Positions 841 through 63,504 are shown, counted from the first letter of the stretch. The stretch: 64,000 nt of DNA from a virus (IMGVR_UViG_3300009512_000010:32001-96000); one strand, 5' to 3'. Numbers and translations are program-made. The notes: generated by a model not told the origin, from the sequence alone.

Positions 841-869
841 TTTGTATTTGATTCGGATTGGTTTGTCAA
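841..869 (-). promoter_or_regulatory. early sigma70 promoter with GANTC motif in spacer
   Basis: TTGACA-17-TACAAA; CGAATCA at 849-855. Confidence 0.75.
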
Positions 870-1005
870 CCCTCTTATTTCAATAAATAAATCTTTTGGC
901 ATAACACCAAGACCAACAGAAGTTCTGGTCTGGCAGTAATGAGCGTAATCTTTACACTCACTAGCTGATGGAAGTTCGTAGGCGGAAGGAAAAAAATCTA
1001 ACATA

Positions 1006-1395
1006 TTAAGATCCTGTTACTAATTCAAATGAACCGTCTGCTTGTCTATCGAAACCTTCCACATATCTGTGGTGGTTGTCTTGCTCAATAGCAGACTGTG
1101 TGATCAAGTATTCGGCGGCTTTCCAAAACTCTTTGACAGTGTTGCCCATGACATAGGCTTTGTAAACGATCTTCTCATGAGTGTTGTTCATCATCTGCTC
1201 AACTGTAGCACCTTTAGCAATAACTTCATAAGTGATCTTCTGTTGACCGTCACCCTTTTGGGCAGAACCTTCCCACTCACCTTCATACATCACTTGATCA
1301 AGGCTAGTGAACTCGGTGTCACAAGACCAGATTGAGTTGTAGTTCAGAGCATCTTGGTGGAAACCGAAGTATTTGCTTTGTTCATCGTAGGTCAT
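1006..1395 (-). CDS. hypothetical early phage protein
   Basis: 129 aa ORF behind an early promoter cassette. Confidence 0.8.
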   Translation of the reverse strand: MTYDEQSKYFGFHQDALNYNSIWSCDTEFTSLDQVMYEGEWEGSAQKGDGQQKITYEVIAKGATVEQMMNNTHEKIVYKAYVMGNTVKEFWKAAEYLITQSAIEQDNHHRYVEGFDRQADGSFELVTGS

Positions 1396-1427
1396 GTAAG
1401 TCTCACTTTCTTTGTTTCTATACTATT

Positions 1428-1456
1428 TTAATAGCACACCGATTCGGGGTTGTCAA
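1428..1456 (-). promoter_or_regulatory. early sigma70 promoter with GANTC motif in spacer
   Basis: TTGACA-17-TATTAA; CGAATCG at 1440-1446. Confidence 0.75.
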
Positions 1457-1459
1457 GCA

Positions 1460-1621
1460 CTAAATTGCAAGTATTAGATTCATTTCATCAACGATATCTT
1501 GGTATTTGGCAATCTTCTTCTCAATTGCATACTTCTTCATTCTTACTGATGAAGTGTTACCGTAAAACGTAGTTAGATATTTTTCTAACTTTTTGATTTC
1601 ATTTTCATACTGTTCTAGCAT
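1460..1621 (-). CDS. small hypothetical protein (53 aa)
   Basis: Manual translation MLEQYENEIKKLEK...; GAGGAG RBS. Confidence 0.6.
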   Translation of the reverse strand: MLEQYENEIKKLEKYLTTFYGNTSSVRMKKYAIEKKIAKYQDIVDEMNLILAI

Positions 1622-1635
1622 TTCAATCTCCTCTA

Positions 1636-1818
1636 CTAATCTACATAAGAATTAGTTATTTTATCCCATCCCCAAGCAACAAACTTGCCCATCTCTTCGC
1701 CTTCTTTAATGCCCACATTAAAAGCACACTCTTTAAAAGCAGAAGTGATCTCTAAATCAGGATACATATCGATTATCTGACACGCTTGATTATAGGCATT
1801 TTCAAAATTAGTATTCAT
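1636..1818 (-). CDS. hypothetical early protein
   Basis: 60 aa ORF, AGGAG RBS, own promoter. Confidence 0.75.
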   Translation of the reverse strand: MNTNFENAYNQACQIIDMYPDLEITSAFKECAFNVGIKEGEEMGKFVAWGWDKITNSYVD

Positions 1819-1834
1819 AAAAATCTCCTTGTTT

Positions 1835-2155
1835 CTACATTACACTCATAGCTGATTCGGATCGACTTGTCAACCCCTTTATTGCCATCTGCGCAACTTC
1901 TTCGAATTCGACATTGGCAATCATATCCTCAAGACGATCTTGGATCTCGACTAACTCGTCAAACGATTTGTCCATATCAAAGACAGCATCATTACAAGCA
2001 CCTGTGAGTTCTTCAATCTGCTTTTCGGTATCCCAATCAAAATCACCGCTTAGGGCATTTGATAGAGCACGTTCAGCATCACGCTTATTTGCTTTAAGAG
2101 CATTAGACGCTATGATGATATCTTCAAGAGTTTCTTTGATTAACTGGATAGACAT
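1835..2155 (-). CDS. hypothetical coiled-coil early protein
   Basis: 106 aa acidic helical ORF, AAGGA RBS, own promoter. Confidence 0.75.
   Translation of the reverse strand: MSIQLIKETLEDIIIASNALKANKRDAERALSNALSGDFDWDTEKQIEELTGACNDAVFDMDKSFDELVEIQDRLEDMIANVEFEEVAQMAIKGLTSRSESAMSVM
1845..1873 (-). promoter_or_regulatory. early sigma70 promoter with GANTC motif in spacer
   Basis: TTGACA-17-TATGAG; CGAATCA at 1853-1859. Confidence 0.7.
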
Positions 2156-2184
2156 TGCGAATCCTTTCTGAGATTACCCTTATA

Positions 2185-2213
2185 GTAATAGCGAATGATT
2201 CGTCCTATGTCAA
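2185..2213 (-). promoter_or_regulatory. early sigma70 promoter with GANTC motif in spacer
   Basis: TTGACA-17-TATTAC; CGAATCA at 2196-2202. Confidence 0.7.
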
Positions 2214-2216
2214 GCA

Positions 2217-3296
2217 CTATTTTCCGATATATTCGTGTGAGTAACACACTCTATCTGCGTGTTTGAAATGACTATCAGCAAATCCACCATAACTAGGTTT
2301 ATCTGGGTTTGCCATTGATCCTGTCTTATAATCCTGTCTGGATATACCATTCTTGGATGTAGCTCTCCATTTTTCGCTACGGTTACGATACTCTCCCAAT
2401 CTAGGGTGAGCCGTTTTTGTAAAATATCTTTTACCTTCGGCTAAATGAATATCGCCCAAAGCATCAGTCAACCTAGCACCTATGCCCAATCCTTGATACT
2501 CTGGTAATACCACTGTGCGATGACCTCGCCAAGCTTTCTTTAAACTACCAGAAGGCATGCTTAAGCTAGAAAGAAATCCGACAAGTCTGCCGTTCCATGT
2601 TGCGATCCAACAAGATGCACCTTTGTGGATGTGGTAGTCGAGATAGTGATGGTCGCTGAAGGTCGTCCAGATGTCTCTGGTACAAGGCTTGATTTCCAAA
2701 ACGATATCTGGCCTTTGATACCCCCTTGTGGTCAGCTTACCTGTTTGAGTATCGAATACCCAATCAGGTTGCAACCACTCAATGATGTCATAGTGACAAG
2801 AGGAGAATACGATGTTCTTTAGATTATTTCTTTTAACATAACGTGAGATAGCATTAGAGCAACTCTTAGCGACATCTCTATCAATAACAGATGTGAACTC
2901 ATCCACAACAATATTACTGCCTAGTTGCCTAGCTAACCTAGCTCGGAACTGTTCTCCATTAGAAAGAACATGATAGGGACGCATCCAAGAGGGAATACTG
3001 TTAAACCCAACAGCACCTAAACGATCTTGAACATCATCAATATCCTTGAAATGAGAAGCGATAGATTTGTTATCAAACCAATAAGGATCCTGTTCAGAAC
3101 CAAATTCTTTAAGTAGAGTGGTCTTACCAGATCCCGAAGGTCCTACAATAAGACCAATACCAAAGTCTTTGAGCGTTGTCTCACGATCAATTGAATTGAT
3201 TTCATGTGGATGAAACGTAGATGTCCCATCAAACTCATAGTCAAAGATCCGACTGATCTCATCCGTGATACCATCACGCTCTACTGTTACTTCCAT
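2217..3296 (-). CDS. ABC-type ATPase fused to GNAT (Mom-like) acetyltransferase
   Basis: Walker A GPSGSGKT, signature LSNGE, Walker B IVVDEF, H-loop SCH. C-terminal HHYL motif and acetyl-CoA motif RTVVLPEYQGLGIG. Confidence 0.8.
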   Translation of the reverse strand: MEVTVERDGITDEISRIFDYEFDGTSTFHPHEINSIDRETTLKDFGIGLIVGPSGSGKTTLLKEFGSEQDPYWFDNKSIASHFKDIDDVQDRLGAVGFNSIPSWMRPYHVLSNGEQFRARLARQLGSNIVVDEFTSVIDRDVAKSCSNAISRYVKRNNLKNIVFSSCHYDIIEWLQPDWVFDTQTGKLTTRGYQRPDIVLEIKPCTRDIWTTFSDHHYLDYHIHKGASCWIATWNGRLVGFLSSLSMPSGSLKKAWRGHRTVVLPEYQGLGIGARLTDALGDIHLAEGKRYFTKTAHPRLGEYRNRSEKWRATSKNGISRQDYKTGSMANPDKPSYGGFADSHFKHADRVCYSHEYIGK

Positions 3297-3816
3297 TTCG
3301 CTTTCCTTTCATCTTTGGGTTGTTAGCCCAATATATAGTGTTGGGTGGTAGGATCCCATGCATGAACCAAGCATTACCAAAGTGTGGTGCGCCACCACCT
3401 GTGAAGTCTACTCTGTTATTATACACCAGTGTAGACATTCCATAGTCCATGAACATCTGTCCACGTTTACCACCTTGGAACGATGCTACAGGTAGGAATA
3501 ACGCAAATGGTTTGCCTAACGAATAGCAATGCTCAATAAACTTATCCTTCAGACTGTATGGTGGATTAGTTATAATACCGTCATATACATCATCAGGTTG
3601 ACACCCAAAGAAATCTTTTCCCTGACTGCCTACCATATTATAACCGAATTTGTGCATTCCGTCAAGTATATTCGAAGAGATCCCCGAAGTAGCTTCGTAG
3701 TATGTCTTATCCTTATCTAGATATTCCAACAAAGGAATGATTTGATCTGATGGCGTGTAGCACTCATCACTTTCAGCATTCCGACTAGTTCGTTTAATCA
3801 TTTCAAGATTTGACAT
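3274..3816 (-). CDS. short N6-adenine (amino) methyltransferase
   Basis: DECYTP, DFF and catalytic IITNPPYS motifs. Confidence 0.75.
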   Translation of the reverse strand: MSNLEMIKRTSRNAESDECYTPSDQIIPLLEYLDKDKTYYEATSGISSNILDGMHKFGYNMVGSQGKDFFGCQPDDVYDGIITNPPYSLKDKFIEHCYSLGKPFALFLPVASFQGGKRGQMFMDYGMSTLVYNNRVDFTGGGAPHFGNAWFMHGILPPNTIYWANNPKMKGKRNGSNSRA

Positions 3817-3827
3817 TCTGTTCCACC

Positions 3828-3956
3828 TTAGTCATTTCTTTCATCCCGCCCCTTCTTAATTTCAAGGTACCTAGTCACCACTAAGTATGCGGCACCTATG
3901 TATGCAACTGATACCAACGGTACACTCAACAGTAGTCCAAGCAATTCTTTAGTCAT
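3828..3956 (-). CDS. small single-TM membrane peptide (42 aa)
   Basis: MTKELLGLLLSVPLVSVAYIGAAYLVVTR...; start overlaps the upstream stop (TAATG). Confidence 0.55.
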   Translation of the reverse strand: MTKELLGLLLSVPLVSVAYIGAAYLVVTRYLEIKKGRDERND

Positions 3957-4648: not shown

Positions 4649-4659
4649 ATATTTCCTAT

Positions 4660-14381: not shown

Positions 14382-14418
14382 ATTATACACACGTTAGGCA
14401 AAGGTGTCAAGTGATTCG
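14382..14418 (-). promoter_or_regulatory. consensus sigma70 promoter with GANTC motif just upstream of -35
   Basis: TTGACA-17-TATAAT; CGAATCA at 14412-14418. Confidence 0.8.
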
Positions 14419-27671: not shown

Positions 27672-28646
27672 CTATGAAGCCAGTGCGTATTGCACTGCCT
27701 TCTCTGCCGCTTTCATCTTGCGGTTTTGGTTTGCGCCGAACCACTGGCTGTGGAGACGATTTTCTGCATTACGACCTTGAACGTGGTCTGTAACATAAGT
27801 TACTGAGTTGAATGCTTGCCACCAAGATCCTTCGGCGTAGTTGGCTCCCGGTTGGCTCTCTAACACATCATAGCAGTTCTTTGCTTGACGTGACAGATCA
27901 TCAACTGTCTTCACTGAGGCAACCTTACGCTTAGTGTCAGTGTGTGGGAACACATCGTTGTAGAAGTTGATGAGTTCTTCGGCACCGTAGCGGCGTGATC
28001 CAATGAACTGAGCCATCTCTTTATACTTCTCAAACTTCTCGTGTGCGATACCCAAGTGCTCTTTAGCCTGTTGTGGATCAAAAGCTTTACGGTGTGACAC
28101 CTTCTCAACACGCTTATCGTTAGCGTTAAGAGACATAGTCAATGTGTTGTTGCATACCACACGAACAGGTGTGAAGCGCACATCGATTGACTTACCGTAC
28201 ATGTGTGGATTGGAGAACAGCAAGAATGATTCTACTGTATCATCACCAAAGACATCGAAGCTTTCCTTGACCTTAGCCAAAGCCCATACCTGTTGACCAC
28301 CTTTAAGCGATCCCGCAGTATGCATCTCCATATCTCCTGCGGCAATGTATTCCGCAAAGAATTCAAACGCAGTCTCGTTCTGCACAGGGTTCCAATTCTC
28401 TCCAACATTGGTCAGAACTGAGTTATCAGATGTACGGATCAGGGACTGTTGTCCTGTCTTGATCTGTTGACCGTTAACGTTCACGAATGAATCGTGCTTC
28501 TCGACGTTCCAATCAAGACCCGCTTTTTGCATCATCTGAACAGGAGTGAGTTCGTTAGATACCTGAGTACCCAAGCCATGCCAAGGCGTATCGCCCGCAT
28601 AAGCCATCTGAGCAACACCGTCGATAATTTCTACTTCATGTGACAT
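27672..28646 (-). CDS. DUF932 (LGT_TIGR03299-like) family protein
   Basis: MAY.G.TPWHGLG...AGLDW.V...TAGSL.GG..VW.LA...TPVRVVCNNTL. Confidence 0.88.
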   Translation of the reverse strand: MSHEVEIIDGVAQMAYAGDTPWHGLGTQVSNELTPVQMMQKAGLDWNVEKHDSFVNVNGQQIKTGQQSLIRTSDNSVLTNVGENWNPVQNETAFEFFAEYIAAGDMEMHTAGSLKGGQQVWALAKVKESFDVFGDDTVESFLLFSNPHMYGKSIDVRFTPVRVVCNNTLTMSLNANDKRVEKVSHRKAFDPQQAKEHLGIAHEKFEKYKEMAQFIGSRRYGAEELINFYNDVFPHTDTKRKVASVKTVDDLSRQAKNCYDVLESQPGANYAEGSWWQAFNSVTYVTDHVQGRNAENRLHSQWFGANQNRKMKAAEKAVQYALAS

Positions 28647-28684
28647 TGTATTTCCCTTCACTTGTTTTCATAACTAATATAAAC

Positions 28685-28713
28685 AATATAGCATATTGAT
28701 TCGGAGTTGTCAA
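28685..28713 (-). promoter_or_regulatory. early sigma70 promoter with GANTC motif in spacer
   Basis: TTGACA-17-TATATT; CGAATCA at 28697-28703. Confidence 0.75.
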
Positions 28714-28716: not shown

Positions 28717-28902
28717 CTAATCGAAGAAGTTTCCTTCAACCCAATCAAAAGCATTAGTGATCCCAACTTGGAACCATGCGCCATCTTTAGATCCTGCAAA
28801 TTTCCACAGGAGTTCTTTGTTGGCGGCTTCCATGGCACGGCTACAAGTTCCGTGCTCTTCAGTAAAGGTTACCCCATATGCGTTGAATGTATAAGTTTCC
28901 AT
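28717..28902 (-). CDS. hypothetical early protein
   Basis: Probable start METY with AGGAG RBS. Confidence 0.65.
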   Translation of the reverse strand: METYTFNAYGVTFTEEHGTCSRAMEAANKELLWKFAGSKDGAWFQVGITNAFDWVEGNFFD

Positions 28903-28912
28903 AATATATCTC

Positions 28913-29182
28913 CTAAGCGAACATTGGTTGCATGTTTGAGAACACAGCATTGTAGGCATTTACTTCACTGCTATAGTACTCAAAGAATTCGTCATCATCT
29001 TCAAAAGCTACAACAGCTACTTTTCCGTTGAAGAAATCATTTTGACTTGCAACGTATTCTGTCCAACAACGATCCATAGCTTCCATACCCTCAAGAGTAT
29101 CACCACGACCATGGCGTTTCATAGTGTCCCAACCTTCTTGGAAGGATACTTCGTCTTGGTAAAAATTAGGAATTCTAAACAT
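28913..29182 (-). CDS. hypothetical early protein
   Basis: 89 aa ORF behind a promoter/leader cassette. Confidence 0.75.
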   Translation of the reverse strand: MFRIPNFYQDEVSFQEGWDTMKRHGRGDTLEGMEAMDRCWTEYVASQNDFFNGKVAVVAFEDDDEFFEYYSSEVNAYNAVFSNMQPMFA

Positions 29183-29187: not shown

Positions 29188-29220
29188 TCTCGCTTTCTTT
29201 GTTTCTATACCATCTTTGTA
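29188..29220. repeat. 33-bp exact dispersed repeat (-10/leader cassette), second copy at 814-846
   Basis: tctcgctttctttgtttctataccatctttgta is identical at 814-846 and 29188-29220; related copies near 1393-1423 and 63499-63530. Confidence 0.9.
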
Positions 29221-29243
29221 CCTGATTCGATATCAGATGTCAA
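29215..29243 (-). promoter_or_regulatory. early sigma70 promoter with GANTC motif in spacer
   Basis: TTGACA-17-TACAAA; CGAATCA at 29223-29229. Confidence 0.75.
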
Positions 29244-29693: not shown

Positions 29694-31727
29694 TTATTTT
29701 GTGGTTGCTCTAAAGATCCCATCCCAATCCTTTGGGAGATCTTGTGTCTTCATATACTCACAACGTTCAATCCAGATGTCATAATAGTCATCCATCTTGC
29801 CTTCGAACTTACCCTTCATATCTTTACAGATGTAGATAGCTTCGTCAAAGTGCTGTGTTGCATAGAAGTTGTGCATAGTGTTGTGATTGAGCATATCCAC
29901 ACCATGTTTGTTAAGGTCAATGTCTAATACTGTATAAATCGTTAACCCTACAGTCTTACCCTTAACGGCAAGATTGTCAAGTTGTAAATAAAAGAAATCA
30001 TTTTGCGTTAGCTCGTAGGTATGGGGTCCCACAATTAATAGAACCCCATACCCTTTGCATGCGCTCTCTAGTCGAGCGGCTGTACTGACACTGTCTCCGA
30101 GGATATCATAGGAGTGTCTGGATGTAGAACCCATCTCTCCAATATAACCAAGGCCAGTATTAATGCCAGCACCCATACCGACTTGCGGTTTACCTTGTTC
30201 CATAAGTTTTTCATTAAATTTCTCCACTGCTTTTAGCATGTTTAGTCCAACCTGTACCGCAGTCTTTGGATGACTGGGATCTGGGATTGGAGCGTTGTGT
30301 ATGTGCATAGTTGCGTCACCGATATATTTGATGATCATTCCGTTGGCATCTAGCACAGGTTGTGTTATTGCATCCATGTAACTGTTCATCACTGTTGTCA
30401 AACCTTTAACATCATCTCCGAACGATTCACCCAATGGGGTGAAACCTCTAAGATCAGAAAATACAATGCTTACTTTTTTCTTCCGACCTTCTTTAATTAG
30501 TTGTGGGTTCTTCTGTAGTAACTCCACAACTTCTGGTGAAGCATATCCACCGAATTGTTTCTTAATTGCTTGTTTCTCTAGGAACTCTCTAACAAACTTA
30601 ATACCATATACTTGCAATGCTATGATCACAAAGACTATGGTAGGTGCTGTCACATCTATTAGCATCTTCTCTGTATTATACATGTACATTGAATATGGTA
30701 TGACAGAACCGATAAGAACACCTGTCGCAATCAGTCCTACTATCATCCATTTGCTTAGTGCAATTAGAGCCAAGCCACCAATCACAATAGCAAGTAGTTC
30801 CGCCATTGGTGCCCAATCGGGACGTTGGATGTTAGTTCCATTAAACATTGTGCCTAGAACTGCCGCTTGGACTTCCCCTGCATATACAGATCCCATAGCA
30901 GTTGGGGTAGGATTGGCTATACCTGCGGCTGTCACGTCAACGATAACAACTGCACCATCAAAGTTTGGTAGATCCGTTATGGACACTCTCTTACTCTTTT
31001 GGCTCCAATCGATCCAGACACGACCTTCACTGTCAGTTGGGATAATACCGAACTGAGGGATCCTCATCTTCTCTATACCGTTGGGCTGTAATTTGATTTG
31101 AAAGCTAATGTCGCCTGCAAGAACACGTAATGTCTCAAGTGCTAGGCTAGGGTATAGTGTACCATCAACCATTGCTACGGTTGGCATACGTCTAACCACA
31201 CCATCTATCTCTGGTTCTGTGCTAATGATCCCTGCACCAACAGAGTTTTGTTCTATGATTGGGACGTTAGCAATTATGCCATCGTATGGAAGAATTGCAT
31301 GCAAATGCTCTGGATTGATAATAGCCGCACCAGGATTGATAGGTTCGTTCTTAGTTTTGTCTGATGGGCGTGAAGCTAGGACTACAGGATAATCGTATAG
31401 AATATCACCCATATATGCATCACCACCTAAACGATCCTCTTCTGGCATCATGATTGTCCAGACCACAAGACCCGCACCCGAATCATATAAACCTTTTATT
31501 ATATCACCATAAACGTTTCTTGGAAAGGGGTATTGACCATATTTGTTTAAAGCTTCTTCATCTATCTCTGCAACATAGATGTTATTATCTACAGGCTCTT
31601 GGTTAATGATCAGTTGATCAAAATAGTTCAGTCTAATGCTTTGTACAAAGTTAGACGGATATACAAACGTATATACTAAAACTGCTAGGGTTAATATTGC
31701 CCACCAAGGACTCAATAGTTTCTTCAT
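29694..31727 (-). CDS. CHASE2-domain class III adenylate cyclase
   Basis: CHASE2 (IDEEAL..YGQYPFPR, DGVVRR, PSLALE), three TM helices, cyclase motifs FSDLRGFT, KYIGDA, GAGINTG, GEMGS, GDSVSTAARLE. Confidence 0.93.
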   Translation of the reverse strand: MKKLLSPWWAILTLAVLVYTFVYPSNFVQSIRLNYFDQLIINQEPVDNNIYVAEIDEEALNKYGQYPFPRNVYGDIIKGLYDSGAGLVVWTIMMPEEDRLGGDAYMGDILYDYPVVLASRPSDKTKNEPINPGAAIINPEHLHAILPYDGIIANVPIIEQNSVGAGIISTEPEIDGVVRRMPTVAMVDGTLYPSLALETLRVLAGDISFQIKLQPNGIEKMRIPQFGIIPTDSEGRVWIDWSQKSKRVSITDLPNFDGAVVIVDVTAAGIANPTPTAMGSVYAGEVQAAVLGTMFNGTNIQRPDWAPMAELLAIVIGGLALIALSKWMIVGLIATGVLIGSVIPYSMYMYNTEKMLIDVTAPTIVFVIIALQVYGIKFVREFLEKQAIKKQFGGYASPEVVELLQKNPQLIKEGRKKKVSIVFSDLRGFTPLGESFGDDVKGLTTVMNSYMDAITQPVLDANGMIIKYIGDATMHIHNAPIPDPSHPKTAVQVGLNMLKAVEKFNEKLMEQGKPQVGMGAGINTGLGYIGEMGSTSRHSYDILGDSVSTAARLESACKGYGVLLIVGPHTYELTQNDFFYLQLDNLAVKGKTVGLTIYTVLDIDLNKHGVDMLNHNTMHNFYATQHFDEAIYICKDMKGKFEGKMDDYYDIWIERCEYMKTQDLPKDWDGIFRATTK

Positions 31728-32500
31728 TAGTTACCGTTCTGGTCTATGTTAAGTGCGCAACCAGTATCAAGAAAACAAGTTCCCACAACAGAATATGTCA
31801 TACTGTTAGATCCGTACTGTGTAGAGTTAATATCTGCCATTGCATTACTTCCTGTTTCAATATCTATACTCACAGAATGGTTGCCAGATCCTGTCTGAGA
31901 TATATCGAAATCATGGGGTGAGCCTAACATATCGAGAAATGCGTATTTGGATGATCCTGTCTGTGTCAACAGCACGTCATTATCATCACCACTAACCATG
32001 ATATCTGCTTCATGGGTATTACCATCTTGGTCTACAGTAATAGTATTGTCATCACCGTTTGCTTCTATTTTCGCACTATTGTAATCACCGTCTTGATCAA
32101 TAACAATAGTTTGATCATTATCACCACCATTACCTAGTTCGCCATTTGCAAGGTTATAATTGCCATTTTGTTCAATATCAATAACACAATTATTACCATG
32201 GCAATCTAAACTTGCTGAGTTGTTATCACCTGTTTGCGACAGATTGTTTATTCCATTACCAGAACTCATCCATACCCACGCTTGATTATTGTCACCTGTT
32301 TGCGCATATGTAGTGCTTGTGTTGTTACCACTCACTTGAGCCTTACCGCCCGAACCAGTTATCTTATTGTTAGCACCATCTTGAGTGATGGTCATGTCTG
32401 TATTATCACCAACTTGCCTCACATAAACCTCATTAGACCAACTAGCGTTGCTGATAAATGTCAATAGAGTTGCCAGTGTTATCCCCCAACCTGTAGTCAT
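31727..32500 (-). CDS. curlin-repeat protein (CsgA/CsgB-like)
   Basis: Signal peptide plus many QxGxxN repeats (ITQDGANN, AQTGDNN, SQTGDNN, EQNGNYN, DQDGDYN). Confidence 0.8.
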   Translation of the reverse strand: MTTGWGITLATLLTFISNASWSNEVYVRQVGDNTDMTITQDGANNKITGSGGKAQVSGNNTSTTYAQTGDNNQAWVWMSSGNGINNLSQTGDNNSASLDCHGNNCVIDIEQNGNYNLANGELGNGGDNDQTIVIDQDGDYNSAKIEANGDDNTITVDQDGNTHEADIMVSGDDNDVLLTQTGSSKYAFLDMLGSPHDFDISQTGSGNHSVSIDIETGSNAMADINSTQYGSNSMTYSVVGTCFLDTGCALNIDQNGN

Positions 32501-33575
32501 ATAACTCCCAATCGTTCTGTTGCAGATCTATGGTATAACCATATGCCTGATTTAATCTTAGTTGTACGAAGTTTTCTCCGCTATCATTTCTTCTAGAGAA
32601 CACCCAATTAGGTGTTTGGTTTAGTAAGGAGATACCTGTCAATGGATCTAATCCGTATATATTCGCTTCCTGTCTTAGTAGCATTGCATTCTGATCGGCA
32701 AGCTCATCACTAAACAACCTCTTTAATGCCTCATTCAATTGATCTAACATATCATACAGTAAGTCTTTAAGGTAGTCTACGTCCAAGTCGAGTTCAGTAA
32801 GCCAAATTCCCTCTATTGAATCAACTAAGGCGTCATAGTCCAATCCCTCATACTGTAAAAAGTCTAACCCAAGAAAGTCTGCGGCCTGTCGTTTCTCAAT
32901 TAGAATTCTACTTTGCTCTTCAAAGTATGGGTTCTTCTTACGTAGGATCAACAGTTGGTTGATCATGCTTTCATCAATGTCCAACAAAAGTGGTGGTGTT
33001 GGTTTATTGTTACTAGTTGATGCTACCGTAACTTGAAATGCTTTATTAAGTACGACAAATCCAGCATCTGTCTCGACTGTTATCTCTCCTGTGTAGCACA
33101 TACCTGCGGCATCACAACTTGGAAGTAATGTGACCATACTACTACCTGTTTCATCTACAACCATAATGAAGTCTGTGCCACGAACACCAATCGTTGCAGA
33201 TGGAGTTCGTATTCTTACCCTCTGTCTACTATTTTTAGCAATCTGACCACTTGCGTATCGGATTGTTCCTAAACTTGCTTTGAGACCAAGTGATCCCTTT
33301 CCAGTAGATGGGTCATAAACAAAGTCATCAATGATGAGACGTGAGTGTTCTGTTATGTCAACTCTTGTCTCATCAATGAAGTTGATAGTCATGGCAGAGT
33401 TAGCCGTAACTGCCGTATCATCCATTTGTATTCCAGTACCCTTCTCCGCACTTATTTCGGAGTTATCACGCTCAATCGCCGCACCACCTTCTTTACCTTT
33501 AAGTTGGGCAATCTCGCCAATGTTTGCATATGCCGAAGTAGACATACACACTAATAATAAAAAGTACTTTAACAT
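32442..33575 (-). CDS. secreted FecR-domain protein
   Basis: Signal peptide; F.DET.V.I.E.S.L.ID, IRTPSATIGVRGTDF. Confidence 0.85.
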   Translation of the reverse strand: MLKYFLLLVCMSTSAYANIGEIAQLKGKEGGAAIERDNSEISAEKGTGIQMDDTAVTANSAMTINFIDETRVDITEHSRLIIDDFVYDPSTGKGSLGLKASLGTIRYASGQIAKNSRQRVRIRTPSATIGVRGTDFIMVVDETGSSMVTLLPSCDAAGMCYTGEITVETDAGFVVLNKAFQVTVASTSNNKPTPPLLLDIDESMINQLLILRKKNPYFEEQSRILIEKRQAADFLGLDFLQYEGLDYDALVDSIEGIWLTELDLDVDYLKDLLYDMLDQLNEALKRLFSDELADQNAMLLRQEANIYGLDPLTGISLLNQTPNWVFSRRNDSGENFVQLRLNQAYGYTIDLQQNDWELYDYRLGDNTGNSIDIYQQR

Positions 33576-34294
33576 CAGTCAGATTGTGTGATGTTTATAG
33601 CTTGTGTATCGCCATTTGTGTGAAGATCAATTACGTTGTCGTATATACCACTTTGGTTTATAACAACAGCATGCCCACGACCCTTTAGGTCAAGACTGAT
33701 TGTGTGTCCGTTAAGATCTCCATCACCAGAAACGTCAATGTCTAATGTGCTGTTACTCGTTTCAAGACTTGCGTTCTTATCAATTGCTACTGTTATAGAC
33801 GCACTTGTACCATCAACATCTGTTGTGATAACGTTTCCGCTATCGTCAACTGTGAAGTTGATTGTAGAGTTACTCGCATCTGCGGTTTCACCAATATTGA
33901 TTGTATAGTCTTGGTTGTCGCCATCGGCATCAATGTTGAGTGTCACAGTATCACAGTTACCCCCAGCGGCACTAGAACACATAAGATCGATCTCGTTATT
34001 ACTACCCAATATGTCCCAAGTACCTACATAGGTACTACCAAGAATTTGTGCCGTAATGCTGTTCGAGTTACCTGTCTGTGTTATGCTGAATGTCATAGAG
34101 TCGGAAGCACCACTAACAGATCCTAAAACTACATCTTGTAGACTAGTACCTATGGTGTTGTTCTGACCGTCTTGGACAATGTCCAAATCTAAAGTGTCGC
34201 CAACCTGTGTTATGTATATGTCGTTTGCATTAATCGGTGTCAGTGGTATACAAAGTGCGCATACCAATAGTATAAACTTTGATGAATACTTCAT
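33575..34294 (-). CDS. curlin-like secreted beta-solenoid protein
   Basis: Signal peptide; IYITQVGD, IVQDGQNN, ITQTGNSN, INQSG repeats; D/N/T/S/I-rich. Confidence 0.7.
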   Translation of the reverse strand: MKYSSKFILLVCALCIPLTPINANDIYITQVGDTLDLDIVQDGQNNTIGTSLQDVVLGSVSGASDSMTFSITQTGNSNSITAQILGSTYVGTWDILGSNNEIDLMCSSAAGGNCDTVTLNIDADGDNQDYTINIGETADASNSTINFTVDDSGNVITTDVDGTSASITVAIDKNASLETSNSTLDIDVSGDGDLNGHTISLDLKGRGHAVVINQSGIYDNVIDLHTNGDTQAINITQSD

Positions 34295-34306
34295 TGTTCT
34301 TTCCTA

Positions 34307-35107
34307 TCATCCGCCAGTCTTTGGATCTACCAAAAACTTCCAGAATTGTCTGTTTTTCCCTTCGTTAATAAGTTCAATAACGCCAGCTTCTATCGCTGAT
34401 CTGACTGCATAATTAACTGGTTCATTCAAACTATAACCAGTTTCCGCTTCAACTAACTTAGTTCCCATATCAAAGAACTTGAACATATCTGCACCTGTTT
34501 GGTGACTTGCTATGTTCTTTTCAGTAGCAACACTCAGTAATACCTTACCTGTGTTAACACTAACTAATCTCATGACTATTGTGACGGTATCAACTCTATA
34601 TTGTTGTTGAACACCAAGACCAAGATACTTTGCACCTGATCCACCTGTAGCCACACTTGAGTCATAACCAACAATGCCACCCTCAAGAATGAGACCAGCA
34701 AATACCATTGGCTTTAGAGGCGTAGGTCCGTCTGCGAGGTTCTTCTCATAGACTTCTCTTGTGTTTCTAACAAGCTGTCTCTCTCTGATTAAATTGTCAA
34801 GACCAACTCGTTCAACAACCTCAAACCATGTTCCGTGACCAACATCTTGTAATGCTTTGATCACCCATACTTCCGCACCTTGAGTAACGGCACTACTTAA
34901 ACTTGCACCCCCACCGCTAGGCTTTCTCTGTCCTGTCATATCCTTAAACTGATAAACAGCAATGGTCATAATCTTACCATCCATCTGAGGATAGTCGGAA
35001 ATATCATTAGGAGAAACCTGTACCACAGGCTCTTGTCCTATAGGATACTGCGAAGGATCCACACAACCTGCAAGTAATGCTATTATCGTTATCAAAGCAA
35101 AACGCAT
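34307..35107 (-). CDS. csgG: curli secretion channel CsgG (lipoprotein)
   Basis: LAGC lipobox; AVYQFKDMTGQRKP, SSAVTQG, WFEVVERVGLDNL..ERQ, EGGIVGYDS, E.G...NEP. Confidence 0.93.
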   Translation of the reverse strand: MRFALITIIALLAGCVDPSQYPIGQEPVVQVSPNDISDYPQMDGKIMTIAVYQFKDMTGQRKPSGGGASLSSAVTQGAEVWVIKALQDVGHGTWFEVVERVGLDNLIRERQLVRNTREVYEKNLADGPTPLKPMVFAGLILEGGIVGYDSSVATGGSGAKYLGLGVQQQYRVDTVTIVMRLVSVNTGKVLLSVATEKNIASHQTGADMFKFFDMGTKLVEAETGYSLNEPVNYAVRSAIEAGVIELINEGKNRQFWKFLVDPKTGG

Positions 35108-35571
35108 CAGAAGTTAAACTCCCCTGATCCTGGAATAGTAATGGTTGTAGTACCATCGTCATTTGTTATGACTAAGGTGATAGATCCTGTAGTAGAATCT
35201 TTAGACCACTCAATCGTACTTCCCTCAATCTCTGTAGATCCGCTACTAGCGCAATCATCTCCTGTACACTCCGCAAACATGGAGTCAACCATCTGTTTAC
35301 TCAGTGTCGCATATATTCTACTCTCAAGGTTCTTAATAAATTTGTTTAATGTAGTATTCTCTAGCTCACGCTCAATGCGATTAGCTTCCGCTCTCATTTC
35401 GTCTTTTCGGTCTTTATTCCTATTGAACAGTAATTGCTCAGTAGATAGTGCATGGGACGAATATCCTTGCCCACTAAAGGAAGGGTTCTTAAAAGTAAAA
35501 GTTAACTCCGCATTACTTTGTGTTGGGAGTAACACCAAAGCTATTAGGCTTAGGATCATCTTCTTTTTCAT
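35107..35571 (-). CDS. csgF: curli assembly factor CsgF
   Basis: Signal peptide then ELTFTFKNPSFSG; C-terminal GTTTITIP; directly upstream of csgG. Confidence 0.85.
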   Translation of the reverse strand: MKKKMILSLIALVLLPTQSNAELTFTFKNPSFSGQGYSSHALSTEQLLFNRNKDRKDEMRAEANRIERELENTTLNKFIKNLESRIYATLSKQMVDSMFAECTGDDCASSGSTEIEGSTIEWSKDSTTGSITLVITNDDGTTTITIPGSGEFNF

Positions 35572-35863
35572 CGGCTTGACCTGTTGAGTTGTGCGTTTCG
35601 CTCGTTGATTGGAACTTAGCAACTTCATTATCCATGCCACGATGTTCCAACACCATCGAAAGCTTACTGTTTAATCTTATCATATCATTATCAAGCATAC
35701 GAACTCTATCGACCAACCGTATCAGAGTCATCATAGTTTCGCCAATAACAGGGTCAATAGTTTCCGTAACCCACTTCCATATAAAGTAGATAAAGTAACC
35801 CATGCCAACAGAGGCAACGACAGGAAAGCCGTATTCACTTATAGCTTGGGTTACACTATCCAT
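35513..35863 (-). CDS. small membrane protein (GFP-motif TM + coiled coil, YvrJ-like)
   Basis: ISEYGFPVVASVGMGYFIYFIW; RVRMLDNDMIRL; paralog of 36102-36380. Confidence 0.7.
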   Translation of the reverse strand: MDSVTQAISEYGFPVVASVGMGYFIYFIWKWVTETIDPVIGETMMTLIRLVDRVRMLDNDMIRLNSKLSMVLEHRGMDNEVAKFQSTSETHNSTGQADEKEDDPKPNSFGVTPNTK

Positions 35864-36483: not shown

Positions 36484-37251
36484 TTAGAATGAAAAGGACA
36501 AATTCAAGGAAGGTGAATATTGTTCGCTATTCATGTCGTAGTTAAGCTTGCTTTCGATAGAAGCGGCATCACTAAGACCAATTAGATAAGAACCACCAAG
36601 GTTCTGTGTCAGGTCATTTTCGTCACCGTTCAAGTAACCTGTGATACCAAGCAATGTTGTTGAGCCTTCGTATGCCCATACATCGTTTGCGTATGTCATT
36701 ACGGTATCAACAGATTGGTCCTTGATCTCAAGACCAAAACCCACACCAACAGCAATATCTTTAGTGTTGATGTTATAGTCGGCAGAAGTAGATGCTGTAA
36801 TACCACCAAGTTCTAGTTGGTAAGCACCTTGCAAACTTGCAATGTCTGTTACGTCTGTACCGATATCAGTAAATGCGAGACCTACACTTACACCAGACCA
36901 AGCGGCTTGCAATGATGTTCCCATAGACGGATCTGCAAGTGGGCTATTTGCGGCAGAAGCTTCACCTTCTACGAAAAGGTTTCCTTGTTTACCAAAAGAC
37001 AGACTAGCTGAACCAACTGCGTGGCCTACGTTCCAGTCGCCTACTGCTAGTTTGTCGTCTGCACCAGCAACTACTTCGACGCCACCAAAGGCATCGCCTA
37101 CGGCAGTCACATCAAAAGCGATTTTCTTTGTGGCGATATACTTACCCGCAGTGTTTTCTGTGATGTCAATGTCAGCATCTACGGCGATATCCGCACCAAA
37201 TGCACTTGTTGACATAGCAATCATTGCTAGAGAAGAGATTAATAGTTTCAT
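36484..37251 (-). CDS. outer-membrane porin-like beta-barrel protein
   Basis: Sec signal peptide, alternating amphipathic beta pattern, C-terminal LNLSFSF BAM motif. Confidence 0.7.
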   Translation of the reverse strand: MKLLISSLAMIAMSTSAFGADIAVDADIDITENTAGKYIATKKIAFDVTAVGDAFGGVEVVAGADDKLAVGDWNVGHAVGSASLSFGKQGNLFVEGEASAANSPLADPSMGTSLQAAWSGVSVGLAFTDIGTDVTDIASLQGAYQLELGGITASTSADYNINTKDIAVGVGFGLEIKDQSVDTVMTYANDVWAYEGSTTLLGITGYLNGDENDLTQNLGGSYLIGLSDAASIESKLNYDMNSEQYSPSLNLSFSF

Positions 37252-37277
37252 GTTCTTGTTATTCCTTGTTAATTGTT

Positions 37278-37592
37278 AGTACGACTTTTCTGTTGCTAGG
37301 TAAGTCGCCAACCCCCTTAAATTAGGCCGCTAGGCGCAATTCAGAAGGAGCAAAGTTATTGTTTGCATTTAGTAGTTTTGACCAATTACGCAGTCACCCG
37401 ATAAACTCCACGTTCACTTTCACACCTGTCGATCCTAGTTCGCCCCCATCAAAAGCACATCATCTTCAACCCTCGTGAGGTCTGTGTCTCTGCAAAAACA
37501 CCTTATTGCAGTAAGGCGTAATGTGCTTGTGGTGGAGGCGTTGGGTACTGCCCCCAAGTCCAGAATGTGTCCACGTTGCTTCAACGTCTACA
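37278..37592 (-). ncRNA. ssrA: circularly permuted two-piece tmRNA (alphaproteobacterial type)
   Basis: Acceptor piece ends CGCCTCCACCA (37530) with GGCAGTA T-loop. Coding piece starts GGGGGCG (37447), giving a G3:U70 pair. Tag ANNNFAPSELRLAA* at 37322-37366. Confidence 0.93.
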
Positions 37593-37598
37593 AGTTAT

Positions 37599-37627
37599 AT
37601 AGTATCACAGACCACCTAAAGTGTCAA
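37599..37627 (-). promoter_or_regulatory. sigma70 promoter of tmRNA
   Basis: TTGACA-17-TACTAT with TG extension. Confidence 0.8.
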
Positions 37628-37662
37628 CAGTCTGCGACATTGATTTAATGTTGTGATATATA

Positions 37663-38304
37663 TCACACAGGAGCGGCATACGTCTGTTCTAGTTCAACAG
37701 GTTGTGGTTCGTTGTAATCTACTTCGAACCCACCCTTATCAAACTTAGGCGGTGGCGCATTCATCTTCATTAGATGAGACACACCACCATGCAACTGTTC
37801 CATCAAGTTACGAGTGTTAAACTGCAACTCTTCAAGATCTCCATTGTTGTCGATAGTAAAGTCTGCCATCCACTGTTTAAGGCTCATGCTGTCATCGCCT
37901 TCACTAGGCAAATGATCTGAGCGATCAATCCAAATACAGAAGTCATAAACACCTGTATTCTGCATAGCAAAGAACTCACGTTTGTTACGTAGTCCACAGT
38001 AGATATCATACTCAGCAAACATTTGGCGACCTAATCGTGCGGCATCCTTCTTGTTGTATGCACAGATTGCATCATACCATTCAGCACGATGATTGTGTCG
38101 ATCTGCATAACACTCTTCAATATCTTTATAACCATATTTTGGCTTTAACATATCATAGATGAAGTGTTTACAACAAAAGTGACTACTGCTTTCAAATGTA
38201 TAGCCCATATTGTCTCTGAGCATTTCACACACGGTATCTTTACCATGCCTTCCATGCCCAATGATTAGTAGTTTTAGTTTAGGTAGTTCTGGTGCTGTTT
38301 CCAT
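37663..38304 (-). CDS. deoxynucleoside monophosphate kinase-like P-loop protein
   Basis: IIGHGRHGKDT; GLRNKRE; DFTIDNNG. Confidence 0.75.
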   Translation of the reverse strand: METAPELPKLKLLIIGHGRHGKDTVCEMLRDNMGYTFESSSHFCCKHFIYDMLKPKYGYKDIEECYADRHNHRAEWYDAICAYNKKDAARLGRQMFAEYDIYCGLRNKREFFAMQNTGVYDFCIWIDRSDHLPSEGDDSMSLKQWMADFTIDNNGDLEELQFNTRNLMEQLHGGVSHLMKMNAPPPKFDKGGFEVDYNEPQPVELEQTYAAPV

Positions 38305-52299: not shown

Positions 52300-52328
52300 A
52301 TTATAATACAAATGTGGGATAATGTCAA
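52300..52328 (-). promoter_or_regulatory. consensus sigma70 promoter of gene 43
   Basis: TTGACA-17-TATAAT. Confidence 0.8.
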
Positions 52329-59989: not shown

Positions 59990-60018
59990 ATTGTACCACA
60001 TATGACACAGGTTGTAAA
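59990..60018 (-). promoter_or_regulatory. sigma70 promoter of gene 55
   Basis: TTTACA-17-TACAAT. Confidence 0.65.
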
Positions 60019-60030
60019 GCATAAAATAGA

Positions 60031-60118: not shown

Positions 60119-60127
60119 TTTTAGGGG

Positions 60128-60156
60128 TTGACAGAATCGCTATTCTATAGTATAAT
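60128..60156 (+). promoter_or_regulatory. perfect sigma70 promoter firing antisense to the uvsW region
   Basis: TTGACA-17-TATAAT on the plus strand, GAATC at 60134-60138, no credible plus-strand gene downstream. Confidence 0.75.
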
Positions 60157-60189
60157 AAAGTAACACTTTGGGAAACAGGGGAGAGAGTA

Positions 60190-60594
60190 TTAATGCATCT
60201 TATCTTTGCGATTCCTTAAAAAGGAAATGATGTTATCTTTCTCTTCTTCTGTCACTACAGACAGGCTTTCCTCTATAGATTCCTCAACAGCCTCTTCTAG
60301 ATTCATATCTATTTGAAGAAACTTAACTGTTTCTGTGTAGTTATCTATAGTCTCTGGTGCGGGCTGTGCATCAAGAGTGATGTGTCCAGCATTCAAAACC
60401 ATAATCATATCATGTTGTACTTGTTGTAGCATCCACGGACGCATAGAGCACATACGATGCTCATCCTTCATCACATAGTGTATGACTAGGGCATTCTTAA
60501 TGACAACCTCATCAGATTCATCACTGTTCCAATCTATTACGTCACAGACAATCTCAGACCCATCTACTAGCTTAAACTGTCTTATATCACTCAT
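60190..60594 (-). CDS. conserved T4-like hypothetical protein (possible Sm-like fold)
   Basis: KLVDGSEIVC...MRPWM pattern; lies between uvsW and gene 55. Confidence 0.7.
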   Translation of the reverse strand: MSDIRQFKLVDGSEIVCDVIDWNSDESDEVVIKNALVIHYVMKDEHRMCSMRPWMLQQVQHDMIMVLNAGHITLDAQPAPETIDNYTETVKFLQIDMNLEEAVEESIEESLSVVTEEEKDNIISFLRNRKDKMH

Positions 60595-62105
60595 TGTTTT
60601 AGTTCCACTTCATATATTTTGTGCTTAAATGATTCCCTTGCGTATATCTTAACACGTTCTGCCGAATGTAAAAGGGTGTAATTCTTTCGGCTCTTCCAGT
60701 GTAAATCATCTGCAATATCATATAACTGTGTAGTCGATCCATCATCTGAGTTACGCAGTCCACGTCCGATAGACTGTAGGACTTTAACCTGTGACTTAGA
60801 CGGTGATGCAAACACAATGTTATGTAGGTTACGAATATTGATCCCTGTAGAGAACGTACCTAAACTTGCTACAATGATTGCATTCTTTTGTGTTTCAATG
60901 ATTTGCCTGATTGCTTCCCTATCATTAGTATCTACCTCACCAGACACAAAGAAGATCTTACGCTTACTGTGTGCTTTGTTCTTAATTAACTCATATAGTA
61001 CTTTACCATGCTTTTCAACATATTGAAAGAGAACTAACGTGTTCCCACTCTGATCTAAAGCTAGGTTAGTGATTAAGCGGTTTCTTGCTTCATTTTTTAC
61101 GATAAAGTCTAGTTCCGCATGGTAGTCTTTCTTACCCCAAGCCTTTCTAACATCTTCTGGATATTTAAGTAATAGAACCTTAATATCTAACGGTGCTAGT
61201 GTATTATCGTCTTGAAGCTTCTTTGTGGTTGTAACATTATATATACGTCCAAATAGTCCTTCTAACACCAACTTGTGTGTTTTAGTTCCATCAAGTGTAC
61301 CTGTTGTACCAAATCTATACTCAGCTTCTCTACTCTTATTCATGATGCCAGTAAGCGACTTGGATTTAAAGTTGTGTACCTCATCTCCAAAGATGGTGCC
61401 AAACTGTTCAAACCATACTCCAGGTAATTTGTAGATAGACTGCCATGTCGATACGAATACACGTTGGCTCATGTTCATCTTAGGTTTACCAGAATAGATC
61501 CTGTGCACTTCCTTCTCTACATCAAAGCTCTCGTCATAGGTTGAGTAGTCTTCGAAATCTGCATACATCTGTTGCACCAAGGATGTTGTGGGAACAACAA
61601 CCAACACCTTCTTAGTGGAGTTCTGTAGCATCCACCGCATCAGCATATAGATGATCAATGACTTACCAGATCCTGTTGGTGATAGTAGAATGGCTCTTTT
61701 ACGATGAACAGCCTCTACCATTGCCTCTAATTGGTATTCTCTAGGAGCAATCTTATTACCCCGACTTGTTAACTTTAGTCCTTTTACGAAGTTGATTAGA
61801 TCATCAAAGTCGATATCATTAACCGAGTCAGGTCTACCATAGTACGAATCGTGCTCAATTTCAATCACATAGCCACGTGCTTTGGCGAACTCTTCTACGT
61901 ATGAGAACAGGCCAATGGGCAACTCGCATGACTGAGAATTAAAGAGTCGGATCTTTCCATCCCACATCTTATTCCTATACGATGGTACGAACTTGTATCC
62001 TGGCACATAGAATGAGAAGAAGTCAACTAATTCATTTGCTATTCCGGGTATTGTGTGTACAAGACATACAGATTGATTCTTTTGGGTTATTACTAATTTA
62101 TCCAC
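60591..62105 (-). CDS. uvsW: DNA helicase UvsW
   Basis: SPTGSGKS, DEVH, TGTL, STGINI.NL, QSIGRGLR. Confidence 0.95.
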   Translation of the reverse strand: MDKLVITQKNQSVCLVHTIPGIANELVDFFSFYVPGYKFVPSYRNKMWDGKIRLFNSQSCELPIGLFSYVEEFAKARGYVIEIEHDSYYGRPDSVNDIDFDDLINFVKGLKLTSRGNKIAPREYQLEAMVEAVHRKRAILLSPTGSGKSLIIYMLMRWMLQNSTKKVLVVVPTTSLVQQMYADFEDYSTYDESFDVEKEVHRIYSGKPKMNMSQRVFVSTWQSIYKLPGVWFEQFGTIFGDEVHNFKSKSLTGIMNKSREAEYRFGTTGTLDGTKTHKLVLEGLFGRIYNVTTTKKLQDDNTLAPLDIKVLLLKYPEDVRKAWGKKDYHAELDFIVKNEARNRLITNLALDQSGNTLVLFQYVEKHGKVLYELIKNKAHSKRKIFFVSGEVDTNDREAIRQIIETQKNAIIVASLGTFSTGINIRNLHNIVFASPSKSQVKVLQSIGRGLRNSDDGSTTQLYDIADDLHWKSRKNYTLLHSAERVKIYARESFKHKIYEVELKQ

Positions 62106-62547
62106 CAGCTTCGAACTGCCTCCATTTAATCATGTTACCAATTGTTTGATGTCTCCAATTGATATTAGTAACGATTTCCTTAAGTGCTTCTACGTTAGTC
62201 TGTCGCAGTGTGATTAGTTCCACAGTCTTTTGGATATCAGTGTCAGCATCATAGTAGTAGTCCATCTCCCCCTTAAGAACTTTAAGACCATTGAACGGAT
62301 CGTATTCCCAACCCAAATCTTCAATTTGGTCTTGAGTTAGCTTACCATTATAGTAGAGCCACTTTTTCTTTAACAGTGATTTTTGTGAAAGTTCTGCCTT
62401 CTTCAACTGCAACTTGGCAATTGATAGAAGTTCTAGATACTTTGCGTGTAGTGTTGGTGAATTTCTACTAGTCTCATCTAGGTTGAATTGCTCAATAACA
62501 CTATCGGTTTTCCACATTTCCAGAACAGTTTCTAGGTTCATTATCAA
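62098..62547 (-). CDS. uvsY: recombination mediator UvsY
   Basis: LHAKYL, YYNGK, I.N.I.W..F.AG. Confidence 0.92.
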   Translation of the reverse strand: MIMNLETVLEMWKTDSVIEQFNLDETSRNSPTLHAKYLELLSIAKLQLKKAELSQKSLLKKKWLYYNGKLTQDQIEDLGWEYDPFNGLKVLKGEMDYYYDADTDIQKTVELITLRQTNVEALKEIVTNINWRHQTIGNMIKWRQFEAGG

Positions 62548-62574
62548 ACTCCATAATCATTTTATATACCTTAT

Positions 62575-63063
62575 CTATACGATATCAAAGTAGGTAAAAC
62601 TGAACGATATCGGCGCAGTGATGTATTGCACATCCGCCGCATTAGCAGTTAAGTTTACACTCCCAAGCAAAGTTGGGACGCAGTCTCTGTAGATGAATTT
62701 GTTCGTTGTGTTGTTGTGGCTAGACAGTATGGACAGTGTAATGTCGGCTACTGAAGAAACTCCTGCATCACTCGCACGAACATCTTTAGTCTCAACCAAG
62801 CGTTCTAACCATGTGTACATTTCTTTATAACCACTCATGTCCTCATCTAATAGGATCTCCATAGTCAATTCGTCATACAGGATCTTATCACCAGCAGTAT
62901 GAATTGCGACACGACTATACTGTACCTCAGTCTGTGCTACAGATACTGATGGGTGTACTACCGATTGAACAAAGAACTCAAGGTTAGGATAGTTTTTCCT
63001 ATTGATTGATATCTTGTATCCAGTTGGTTGTAAGAAGTTCTCGTTCTTGGTTAAAGTTGCCAT
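62575..63063 (-). CDS. 3: tail completion / sheath stabilizer gp3-like
   Basis: NFLQP.G.K, P.LEFF.Q.V..P, DE.M..Y.E...W, L.ILSS.N; located before uvsY. Confidence 0.8.
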   Translation of the reverse strand: MATLTKNENFLQPTGYKISINRKNYPNLEFFVQSVVHPSVSVAQTEVQYSRVAIHTAGDKILYDELTMEILLDEDMSGYKEMYTWLERLVETKDVRASDAGVSSVADITLSILSSHNNTTNKFIYRDCVPTLLGSVNLTANAADVQYITAPISFSFTYFDIV

Positions 63064-63072
63064 GGTCTTTCC

Positions 63073-63432
63073 TTAGAATTGTGGGACAGCTAGAGCATCG
63101 ATGTCGAAGTTTACGCTAACTCCACATCCACAACTACTCTTAGCGTTGGGGTTATTGACTTCAAAGTTGCTTCCTGTGAGACTTTGCACATAGTCAACTT
63201 CAGTGCCAATTAGAAACATAACACTAGCTGTGCTAATTACGAAGTTACCAGACTCACATTCAATGACTTCATCTTGAGGGTTTACTTCATCCGATTGCAT
63301 TGTACCCCAATCATACTCAAATCCTGCGCAACCACCACCTTTAAGGTTTAGGCTAATCGCATAACAATCGTTCTCAATACAAAGCCTACTAATCTGTGCA
63401 TCTGCTTTGGGGGTGACTGTGCATATAGTCAT
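63073..63432 (-). CDS. iscA: HesB/IscA Fe-S cluster carrier
   Basis: GGGCAGFEY, NPNAKSSCGCGVS. Confidence 0.9.
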   Translation of the reverse strand: MTICTVTPKADAQISRLCIENDCYAISLNLKGGGCAGFEYDWGTMQSDEVNPQDEVIECESGNFVISTASVMFLIGTEVDYVQSLTGSNFEVNNPNAKSSCGCGVSVNFDIDALAVPQF

Positions 63433-63453
63433 ATAGGTTCTCCTCTTCATGTC

Positions 63454-63461
63454 TATTTATA
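63454..63461 (-). promoter_or_regulatory. T4-type late promoter TATAAATA
   Basis: Exact match upstream of iscA and gene 3. Confidence 0.75.
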
Positions 63462-63475
63462 CTCAAAAATAATGC

Positions 63476-63504
63476 TTGACTGTGCATTTCGAATCATATA
63501 TAAA
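63476..63504 (+). promoter_or_regulatory. early sigma70 promoter with GANTC motif in spacer
   Basis: TTGACT-17-TATAAA; CGAATCA at 63490-63496. Confidence 0.7.

Follow-up and report, generated by a model that had tools for sequence, protein, structure and literature searches.

The window analysed here is a 64,000-nucleotide stretch of an IMG/VR virus record (bases 32001-96000 of IMGVR_UViG_3300009512_000010, a 159,934-bp record that is 91% complete, hereafter G000), and the element in question is a CGAATC(A/G) box that lies in the spacer that separates the -35 from the -10 element of a class of sigma70-type early promoters. The T4-like gene set of G000 includes a family B DNA polymerase, UvsW, UvsX, a gp41-type helicase, a gp46-like protein and NrdA, and the genome is that of an uncultured T4-like phage, which probably infects an alphaproteobacterium. 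Its polymerase shares 56% identity with the counterpart in 'Phage C48C1' and about 46% with those of T4-like cyanophages. C48C1 is also the closest overall relative, with 71 proteins in common and 56% identity on the shared core; a megablast search of the window against cultured phages returned no match.

A spacer box in sigma70-type promoters

The sequence-only reading of the window had described seven promoters with a common spacer motif, and all seven are present as described, each consisting of TTGAC(A/T), a 17-nt spacer with CGAATC(A/G) and a -10 hexamer, with the remaining spacer bases varying from promoter to promoter (Table 1). The sigma70-type core, TTGAC(A/T)-N17-TAnnnn, lies directly upstream of a ribosome-binding site (RBS) and a start codon. 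The additional copies reported near other promoters were likewise recovered, two of them against or after a -35 element (at 14412 and 60134) and one, CGATTCG, in a leader at about 16128, and the promoters of gene 43 (52300-52328) and of the transfer-messenger RNA (tmRNA; 37599-37627) do lack the box, as had been stated. Six further box promoters lie outside the window, at genome positions 21790, 24770, 25057, 25093, 92128 and 139159, bringing the whole-genome total to 13. Several of the G000 promoters have the leader GGTATAGAAACAAAGAAAG in common and are clearly paralogous cassettes. The genes at 397-807 and 1006-1395 both have orthologs in a jumbo phage, G003, the former behind the same promoter type and the latter behind a CGAATCA promoter.

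Table 1. Box-bearing promoters and associated features of the window (window coordinates)
Feature	Position	Strand	Details
Early promoter	841..869	-	TTGACA; CGAATCA at 849-855; -10 TACAAA; drives 136-aa gene 397-807 (phrog_10415)
Early promoter	1428..1456	-	CGAATCG at 1440-1446; -10 TATTAA; drives 129-aa gene 1006-1395
Early promoter	1845..1873	-	CGAATCA at 1853-1859; -10 TATGAG; drives 60-aa gene 1636-1818
Early promoter	2185..2213	-	CGAATCA at 2196-2202; -10 TATTAC; drives 106-aa gene 1835-2155
Early promoter	28685..28713	-	CGAATCA at 28697-28703; -10 TATATT; drives DUF932 gene 27672-28661
Early promoter	29215..29243	-	CGAATCA at 29223-29229; -10 TACAAA; drives small genes 28913-29182 and 28717-28959
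Early promoter	63476..63504	+	TTGACT; CGAATCA at 63490-63496; -10 TATAAA; drives small gene starting about 63535
Consensus promoter	60128..60156	+	-10 TATAAT; GAATCG (60134) directly after -35, centre about -27
Consensus promoter	14382..14418	-	CGAATCA (14412-14418) abuts upstream edge of -35
Two-piece (permuted) tmRNA, alphaproteobacterial type	37231..37631	-	ARAGORN; Rfam alpha_tmRNA, 114.9 bits
P0001, 180-aa minimal N6-adenine methyltransferase-like protein	3274..3816	-	NPPY motif; phrog_799 match, 5.6e-30

Three plus-strand consensus promoters, at 60128-60230 in the window and at genome positions 25093 and 139159, have in common a conserved leader, about 45 nt long (TATAAT-AAAGGATCAGCTTCGA...AGGGGAGAGAGT.TTAAT). 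The window copy runs antisense into the gene at 60190-60594, and a radical SAM operon follows the one at 25093.

Counted against background, the motif is enriched in spacers and not across the window at large, where the CGAATCR total is unremarkable (14, with 11.7 expected). Among the TTGACW-N17-TA spacers of the whole genome, CGAATC is the top-enriched 6-mer (11 of 55, against 0.09 expected, P=5e-20) and its reverse never occurs; similarly, CGAATC falls within 17 nt after TTGACW at 11 of 289 sites genome-wide (0.46 expected, P=3e-12) and the reverse word at none. The excess of GANTC is found only in the spacer (14 against 1.2 expected), with the 40 nt upstream at chance. The final base of spacer GAATN is C in 14 of 19 cases despite GAATC being the rarest GAATN genome-wide, which argues that C is selected at the position where it completes GANTC. 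Bases flanking the box vary, and the box sits at no fewer than four offsets in G000. These statistics are anchored on promoters; longest-open-reading-frame gene calls swallowed promoters, and a coding-versus-intergenic count of GANTC was set aside. It can be taken as almost certain that the box functions as a promoter element.

Promoters with the box are also distinguished by weak -10 elements. A T at -7 is found in one of the nine full-box promoters of G000, whereas 15 of the 16 box-less promoters followed by an RBS and a start codon have it (Fisher P=7e-5), and the same difference is seen in G003 (9 of 25 box promoters versus 45 of 54 box-less ones, P=5.5e-5). The missing T would suit a factor that aids open-complex formation, a role reported for GcrA, and the weakness of these elements suggests activation rather than repression.

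Correspondence with the GcrA site

In Caulobacter crescentus, GcrA activates sigma70 promoters methylated by CcrM, PcsM being one example (PMC4647560; PMC5887438; PMC9976885). The GcrA site derived by Haakonsen et al. as a MEME consensus is TGATTCG or, more broadly, YGAKTCK (PMC4647560), and all seven bases of TGATTCG are contacted by the GcrA DNA-binding domain (Wu et al.). Published box centres within the spacer are -20+/-1 and -30+/-2, with +5 to +30 given as a further location, and the nontemplate strand of the scaffold used for cryo-electron microscopy of the GcrA activation complex reads TTGACA-CCCGGG-CGAATC-CCTGC-TATAAT, with the box centred at -20 (PMC9976885). Of the nine full CGAATCR boxes in G000, eight have TGATTCG as their template-strand sequence and hence CGAATCA as the nontemplate one, in the orientation of the scaffold. 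When positions are counted from the -10 hexamer with assumed, unmapped start sites, the G000 boxes are centred at -18 (five), -19 (two), -20 (one), -21 (one), -22 (three) and -27 (two); all are on the same strand as the scaffold box, those at -18 to -22 are within 2 bp of its place, and the scaffold geometry is matched exactly by the promoter at genome position 21790. So counted, the centres come within 1 bp of the published windows, though some fall outside them.

The promoters of G000 resemble Caulobacter GcrA promoters in their sigma70 -35/-10 core, in a TGATTCG/YGAKTCK spacer box near -20 (and near -30), in having CGAATC on the nontemplate strand, and in an apparent need for help with open-complex formation. 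Unlike the Caulobacter promoters, they are located on a lytic phage genome, drive small early genes, have box centres at -18, -19 or -22 rather than -20, and are known here from sequence alone. About a dozen early promoters hold the exact GcrA word in their spacer, which suggests that the phage may use the host GcrA/CcrM system to start infection.

Relatives, host indicators and phage-encoded candidates

Scanning IMG/VR for the pattern turned up many contigs that hold several promoters of this kind. Three of these, either fragments or nearly whole genomes, belong to ~350-kb jumbo phages that are unrelated to G000 and distantly related to RaK2, and each has some 25-30 such promoters. In G003, a 342-kb record, GAATC occurs in 28 of 131 promoter-like sites, 25 of them CGAATC(A/G). 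Here CGAATC is always 4 nt before TATAnn and its distance to the -35 element varies; 24 of the 28 GAATC sites centre at -19; the N6-7 upstream of the box is variable, and CGAATC is invariant in 25 promoters. Early genes common to G000 and G003 lie behind this promoter type in both phages, and promoter-plus-gene cassettes have been exchanged between them. The two also have in common 18 proteins that are not in Cr30 or C48C1, several of unknown function and with identities up to 74%; no DNA-binding candidate was identified among the proteins shared by G000 and G003. G003 additionally encodes 28 tRNAs, one of which has a CUA anticodon (132737-132811, locus L147), is called tRNA-Pyl by ARAGORN and may be an amber suppressor.

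An enterobacterial host was considered for the RaK2-like jumbo contigs and set aside, as the design is absent from enterobacterial RaK2 (3 pattern hits) and Yersinia phage fHe-Yen9-04 (2). Nor was the design found in Caulobacter phage Cr30, C48C1, HTVC008M, phiM9 or phiCbK. A BLAST lead to Vibrio phage Va1 was attributed to chance, the match lying inside a coding sequence and the whole record having 2 pattern hits versus 3 for the control. Sinorhizobium phage phiM12 resembles G000 in having TTGACN, a CG(G)AAT element at about -20, GGAAT after the -35 element, a TAATTT-type -10 element and a similar leader, ATAGAGAGAAACGAAAG, but differs in that its element is mostly CGAATTT or GGAATTT (GAATT 15, GAATC 8) and mostly not methylatable by CcrM.

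Indications of the host come from the tmRNA and from GANTC content. Like the tmRNA of G000, the two-piece tmRNA of G003 scores best with the Rfam alphaproteobacterial model (91.7 bits). Among 80 matches listed for a 20-nt word from the tmRNA core in bacterial genomes, all are to Alphaproteobacteria save a few generically or oddly labelled metagenome-assembled genomes, and GcrA is present in five of five alphaproteobacterial genomes tried, including two SAR116. Attempts to place the host further included a BLAST search of the G000 tmRNA against 120 alphaproteobacterial loci, which matched only the conserved cores, a search of 401 genomes sampled from the class Alphaproteobacteria, which gave no match at E<=1e-8, and a cluster look-up, which returned no taxonomy. 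The tmRNAs of G000 and of the jumbo phage (L150, 5986-6380, minus strand) are 76-81% identical over 260 nt, exceeding their likeness to any of the 120 loci. Adjoining the tmRNA gene of G000 is a gene for a 213-aa P-loop protein (37663-38304, minus strand; phrog_38514, with a weak match to deoxynucleoside monophosphate kinase) that has 71% identity to its counterpart in G003.

GANTC occurs at 0.43-0.56 of its expected frequency in G000 and at 0.58 in G003, a lower ratio than for any other word of its class in the latter genome, in line with the depletion of at least 2-fold reported for CcrM-bearing Alphaproteobacteria. G000 also avoids other palindromes: CGCG, CGATCG, ACCGGT, AGCGCT, CCTAGG, CGTACG, CTCGAG, GACGTC and GAGCTC each occur 0 times, and CCGG, GGCC and GGNCC have observed/expected ratios of 0.25, 0.36 and 0.30. 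This avoidance suggests hosts rich in restriction systems, and because so many other palindromes are avoided, restriction avoidance may contribute to the depletion of GANTC as well.

P0001 is the only candidate found for methylating the phage's own DNA. The phrog_799 family that it matches is annotated as DNA methyltransferase, and its AlphaFold2 model (mean predicted local distance difference test score, pLDDT, of 83) has gamma-class adenine DNA methyltransferases as top Foldseek matches. The P0001 family is highly conserved, with at least 750 metagenomic proteins and no Pfam match, and the G003 copy is 74% identical. Two fragments, G001 and G002, have the promoters without a P0001-family methylase; G001 has a gene for a beta-class methylase, to which CcrM is the nearest relative of solved structure. 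In relatives L169-L171, the heme-pathway genes URO-D, coproporphyrinogen oxidase and porphobilinogen deaminase adjoin the methylase gene.

The sequence-only reading had left room for a phage-encoded GcrA, an option rejected within the 91%-complete genome by a search for gcrA and ccrM homologs that found neither: there is no match to PF07750, the GcrA family, in G000 to G005, and a custom GcrA hidden Markov model run against six-frame open reading frames found nothing better than an E value of about 2. Neither was there a match to PF09114 or PF09010 in G000, as would be expected of MotA and AsiA.

Candidate readers of the box

The best single explanation, to which a probability of roughly one half is assigned, is that the box is read by host GcrA acting on methylated GANTC. 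The CGAATC(A/G) box, YGATTCG on the template strand, would be the cis-element of one class of sigma70-type early promoters, and GcrA, a sigma70-bound cofactor of Alphaproteobacteria, would read it by docking its N-terminal domain on N6-methylated GANTC in the -35/-10 spacer and aiding open-complex formation. In this manner the box would compensate for poor -10 hexamers, mostly without T at -7, and its adenines would owe their methylation to host CcrM or to a phage enzyme, P0001 for example. An alphaproteobacterial host with GcrA and CcrM, methylated box adenines and GcrA as the reader are all deductions from nucleotide sequence. A more elaborate version, quite doubtful at present, is that the GANTC boxes are methylated before the DNA is packaged, by P0001 or, late in infection, by host CcrM, so that injected genomes would be fully methylated and fired at once by host GcrA-RNA polymerase and unmethylated replicated copies would lose this promoter class.

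The link to GcrA and CcrM proposed by the sequence-only reading stands as regards the word itself, its strand and near-position, the weak -10 elements, the alphaproteobacterial type of the tmRNA, GANTC depletion and recurrence in jumbo phages, and is weakened by the CGAATTT of phiM12 and by the lack of gcrA and ccrM in the phage. Several observations weigh against it. With start sites assumed, the five boxes at -18 and the three at -22 fall 1 bp outside the published window. Neither a CcrM-family methylase nor GcrA was found in G000 at 91% completeness, and the P0001 family does not strictly travel with the promoter class, being carried by T4-like contigs (L166, L168) without such promoters nearby. 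Cr30, phiCbK and phiM9 are cultured phages of GcrA-bearing hosts, yet the promoter class was not found in them. The early promoters of phiM12, evidently of shared ancestry with those of G000, have mostly CGAATTT or GGAATTT rather than GANTC. L169-L171, close relatives with which G000 has CHASE2, FecR and CsgG genes in common, repeat a different spacer, TTGACT-CTACTTTGTTTTGATTC-TATAAA, which ends in TTGATTC-TATAAA and places TGATTCT in the opposite orientation at about -15. The variants in phiM12 and L169-L171 show that the element evolves, and they leave room for a reader other than GcrA. Finally, the host is placed no lower than class, and the class is assigned from the tmRNA alone.

It is possible, though rather unlikely, that the match to the GcrA word is coincidental and that some other sequence-specific factor binds the box. 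This could be a protein of the phage, injected or synthesised early, or a non-GcrA regulator of the host, and it could work as an activator or as a spacer-bound repressor that shuts the promoters off. The phiM12 elements, at the same place, fit a reader of CGAAT better than a reader of methylated GANTC, and such a factor could be sought among the proteins of unknown function that G000 and G003 share to the exclusion of Cr30 and C48C1; it would also accommodate the missing CcrM-family gene and the failure to find the class in cultured Caulobacter phages. Coincidence would, however, have to extend to seven bases, strand and position, to the selection of C where it completes GANTC and to the depletion of GANTC elsewhere in the genome, and the shared proteins offer no DNA-binding candidate; a repressor in particular is at odds with the weak -10 elements, which point to activation. 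That no trans-acting factor reads the box at all, which would be an intrinsic spacer feature such as DNA shape sensed by RNA polymerase, or a relic of duplicated promoter-leader cassettes, is unlikely. In its favour are the paralogous cassettes with GGTATAGAAACAAAGAAAG and those passed between G000 and G003. Against it stand the differing bases around the box and its four or more offsets in G000, the variable N6-7 upstream of an invariant CGAATC in G003, the retention of the box across T4-like and jumbo lineages, and its link to weak -10 elements.

Methylation might also act without GcrA, with N6-methyladenine at the spacer GANTC altering the melting of sigma70 promoters directly or blocking a silencer of the host, MucR for instance. 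The genome has an adenine methylase-like gene, and GANTC is retained in promoters when depleted overall, as this mechanism would have it; the conservation of the flanks (C before, A/G after) nevertheless goes beyond the CcrM site and matches the extended preference of GcrA, and the strict strand orientation would be needless for a symmetric methylation mark, making this explanation very unlikely.

The nearest published precedents are the GcrA homolog encoded by phiCbK-like Caulobacter phages (phiCbK gp222 type; Gill 2012, PMC3556154) and the GcrA-dependent prophage operon reported in Brevundimonas; no description of such phage promoters was found in the literature searched. Both the phiCbK-like phages and, by inference, G000 engage the alphaproteobacterial GcrA module, but phiCbK brings the GcrA protein and has 0 promoter pattern hits, whereas G000 brings the DNA sites and no gcrA gene was found in it. 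CtrA-binding sites and CtrA homologs occur in phages of Alphaproteobacteria (Mascolo 2022, PMC9437464), where a wiring of phage expression to a master regulator of the host cell cycle is likewise proposed; the regulator and motif described there are different, and the G000 box is not a CtrA box.

A further parallel is found in the middle promoters of T4, which are activated through appropriation of sigma by MotA and AsiA and in which a MotA box replaces the -35 element. In T4 and G000 alike, an additional box sets the promoter class apart and is recognised by a sigma70-associated factor, the reader in G000 being a predicted one; unlike in T4, the -35 TTGACA of G000 is intact, the box is in the spacer, and no MotA or AsiA gene was found. 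Early-gene timing in T4-like phages outside the enterobacteria is largely unknown because T4-like phages there are without MotA and AsiA. Were GcrA shown to read the boxes, lytic phages of a major bacterial class would tie the onset of infection to DNA methylation and to a cell-cycle cofactor of the host, in essence a new viral way to sense the state of the host and to tell injected from replicated DNA. The strategy would be widespread, since aquatic metagenomes hold both T4-like and ~350-kb jumbo phages with the design. Self-marking of virion DNA, if it occurs, would provide an epigenetic early-to-middle switch in T4-like and jumbo alphaproteobacterial phages, standing in for the missing MotA/AsiA, and infection could be gated to GcrA-containing, S-phase hosts.

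Elsewhere in the window, a back-translation of CsgG compared with bacterial genomes, as a further lead to the host, found no relative. The csgG gene belongs to a cluster on the minus strand (29694-35640) in which a CHASE2 adenylate/guanylate cyclase, a FecR-domain protein, and CsgG and CsgF are encoded together, and this cluster is conserved in relatives L170 and L171.

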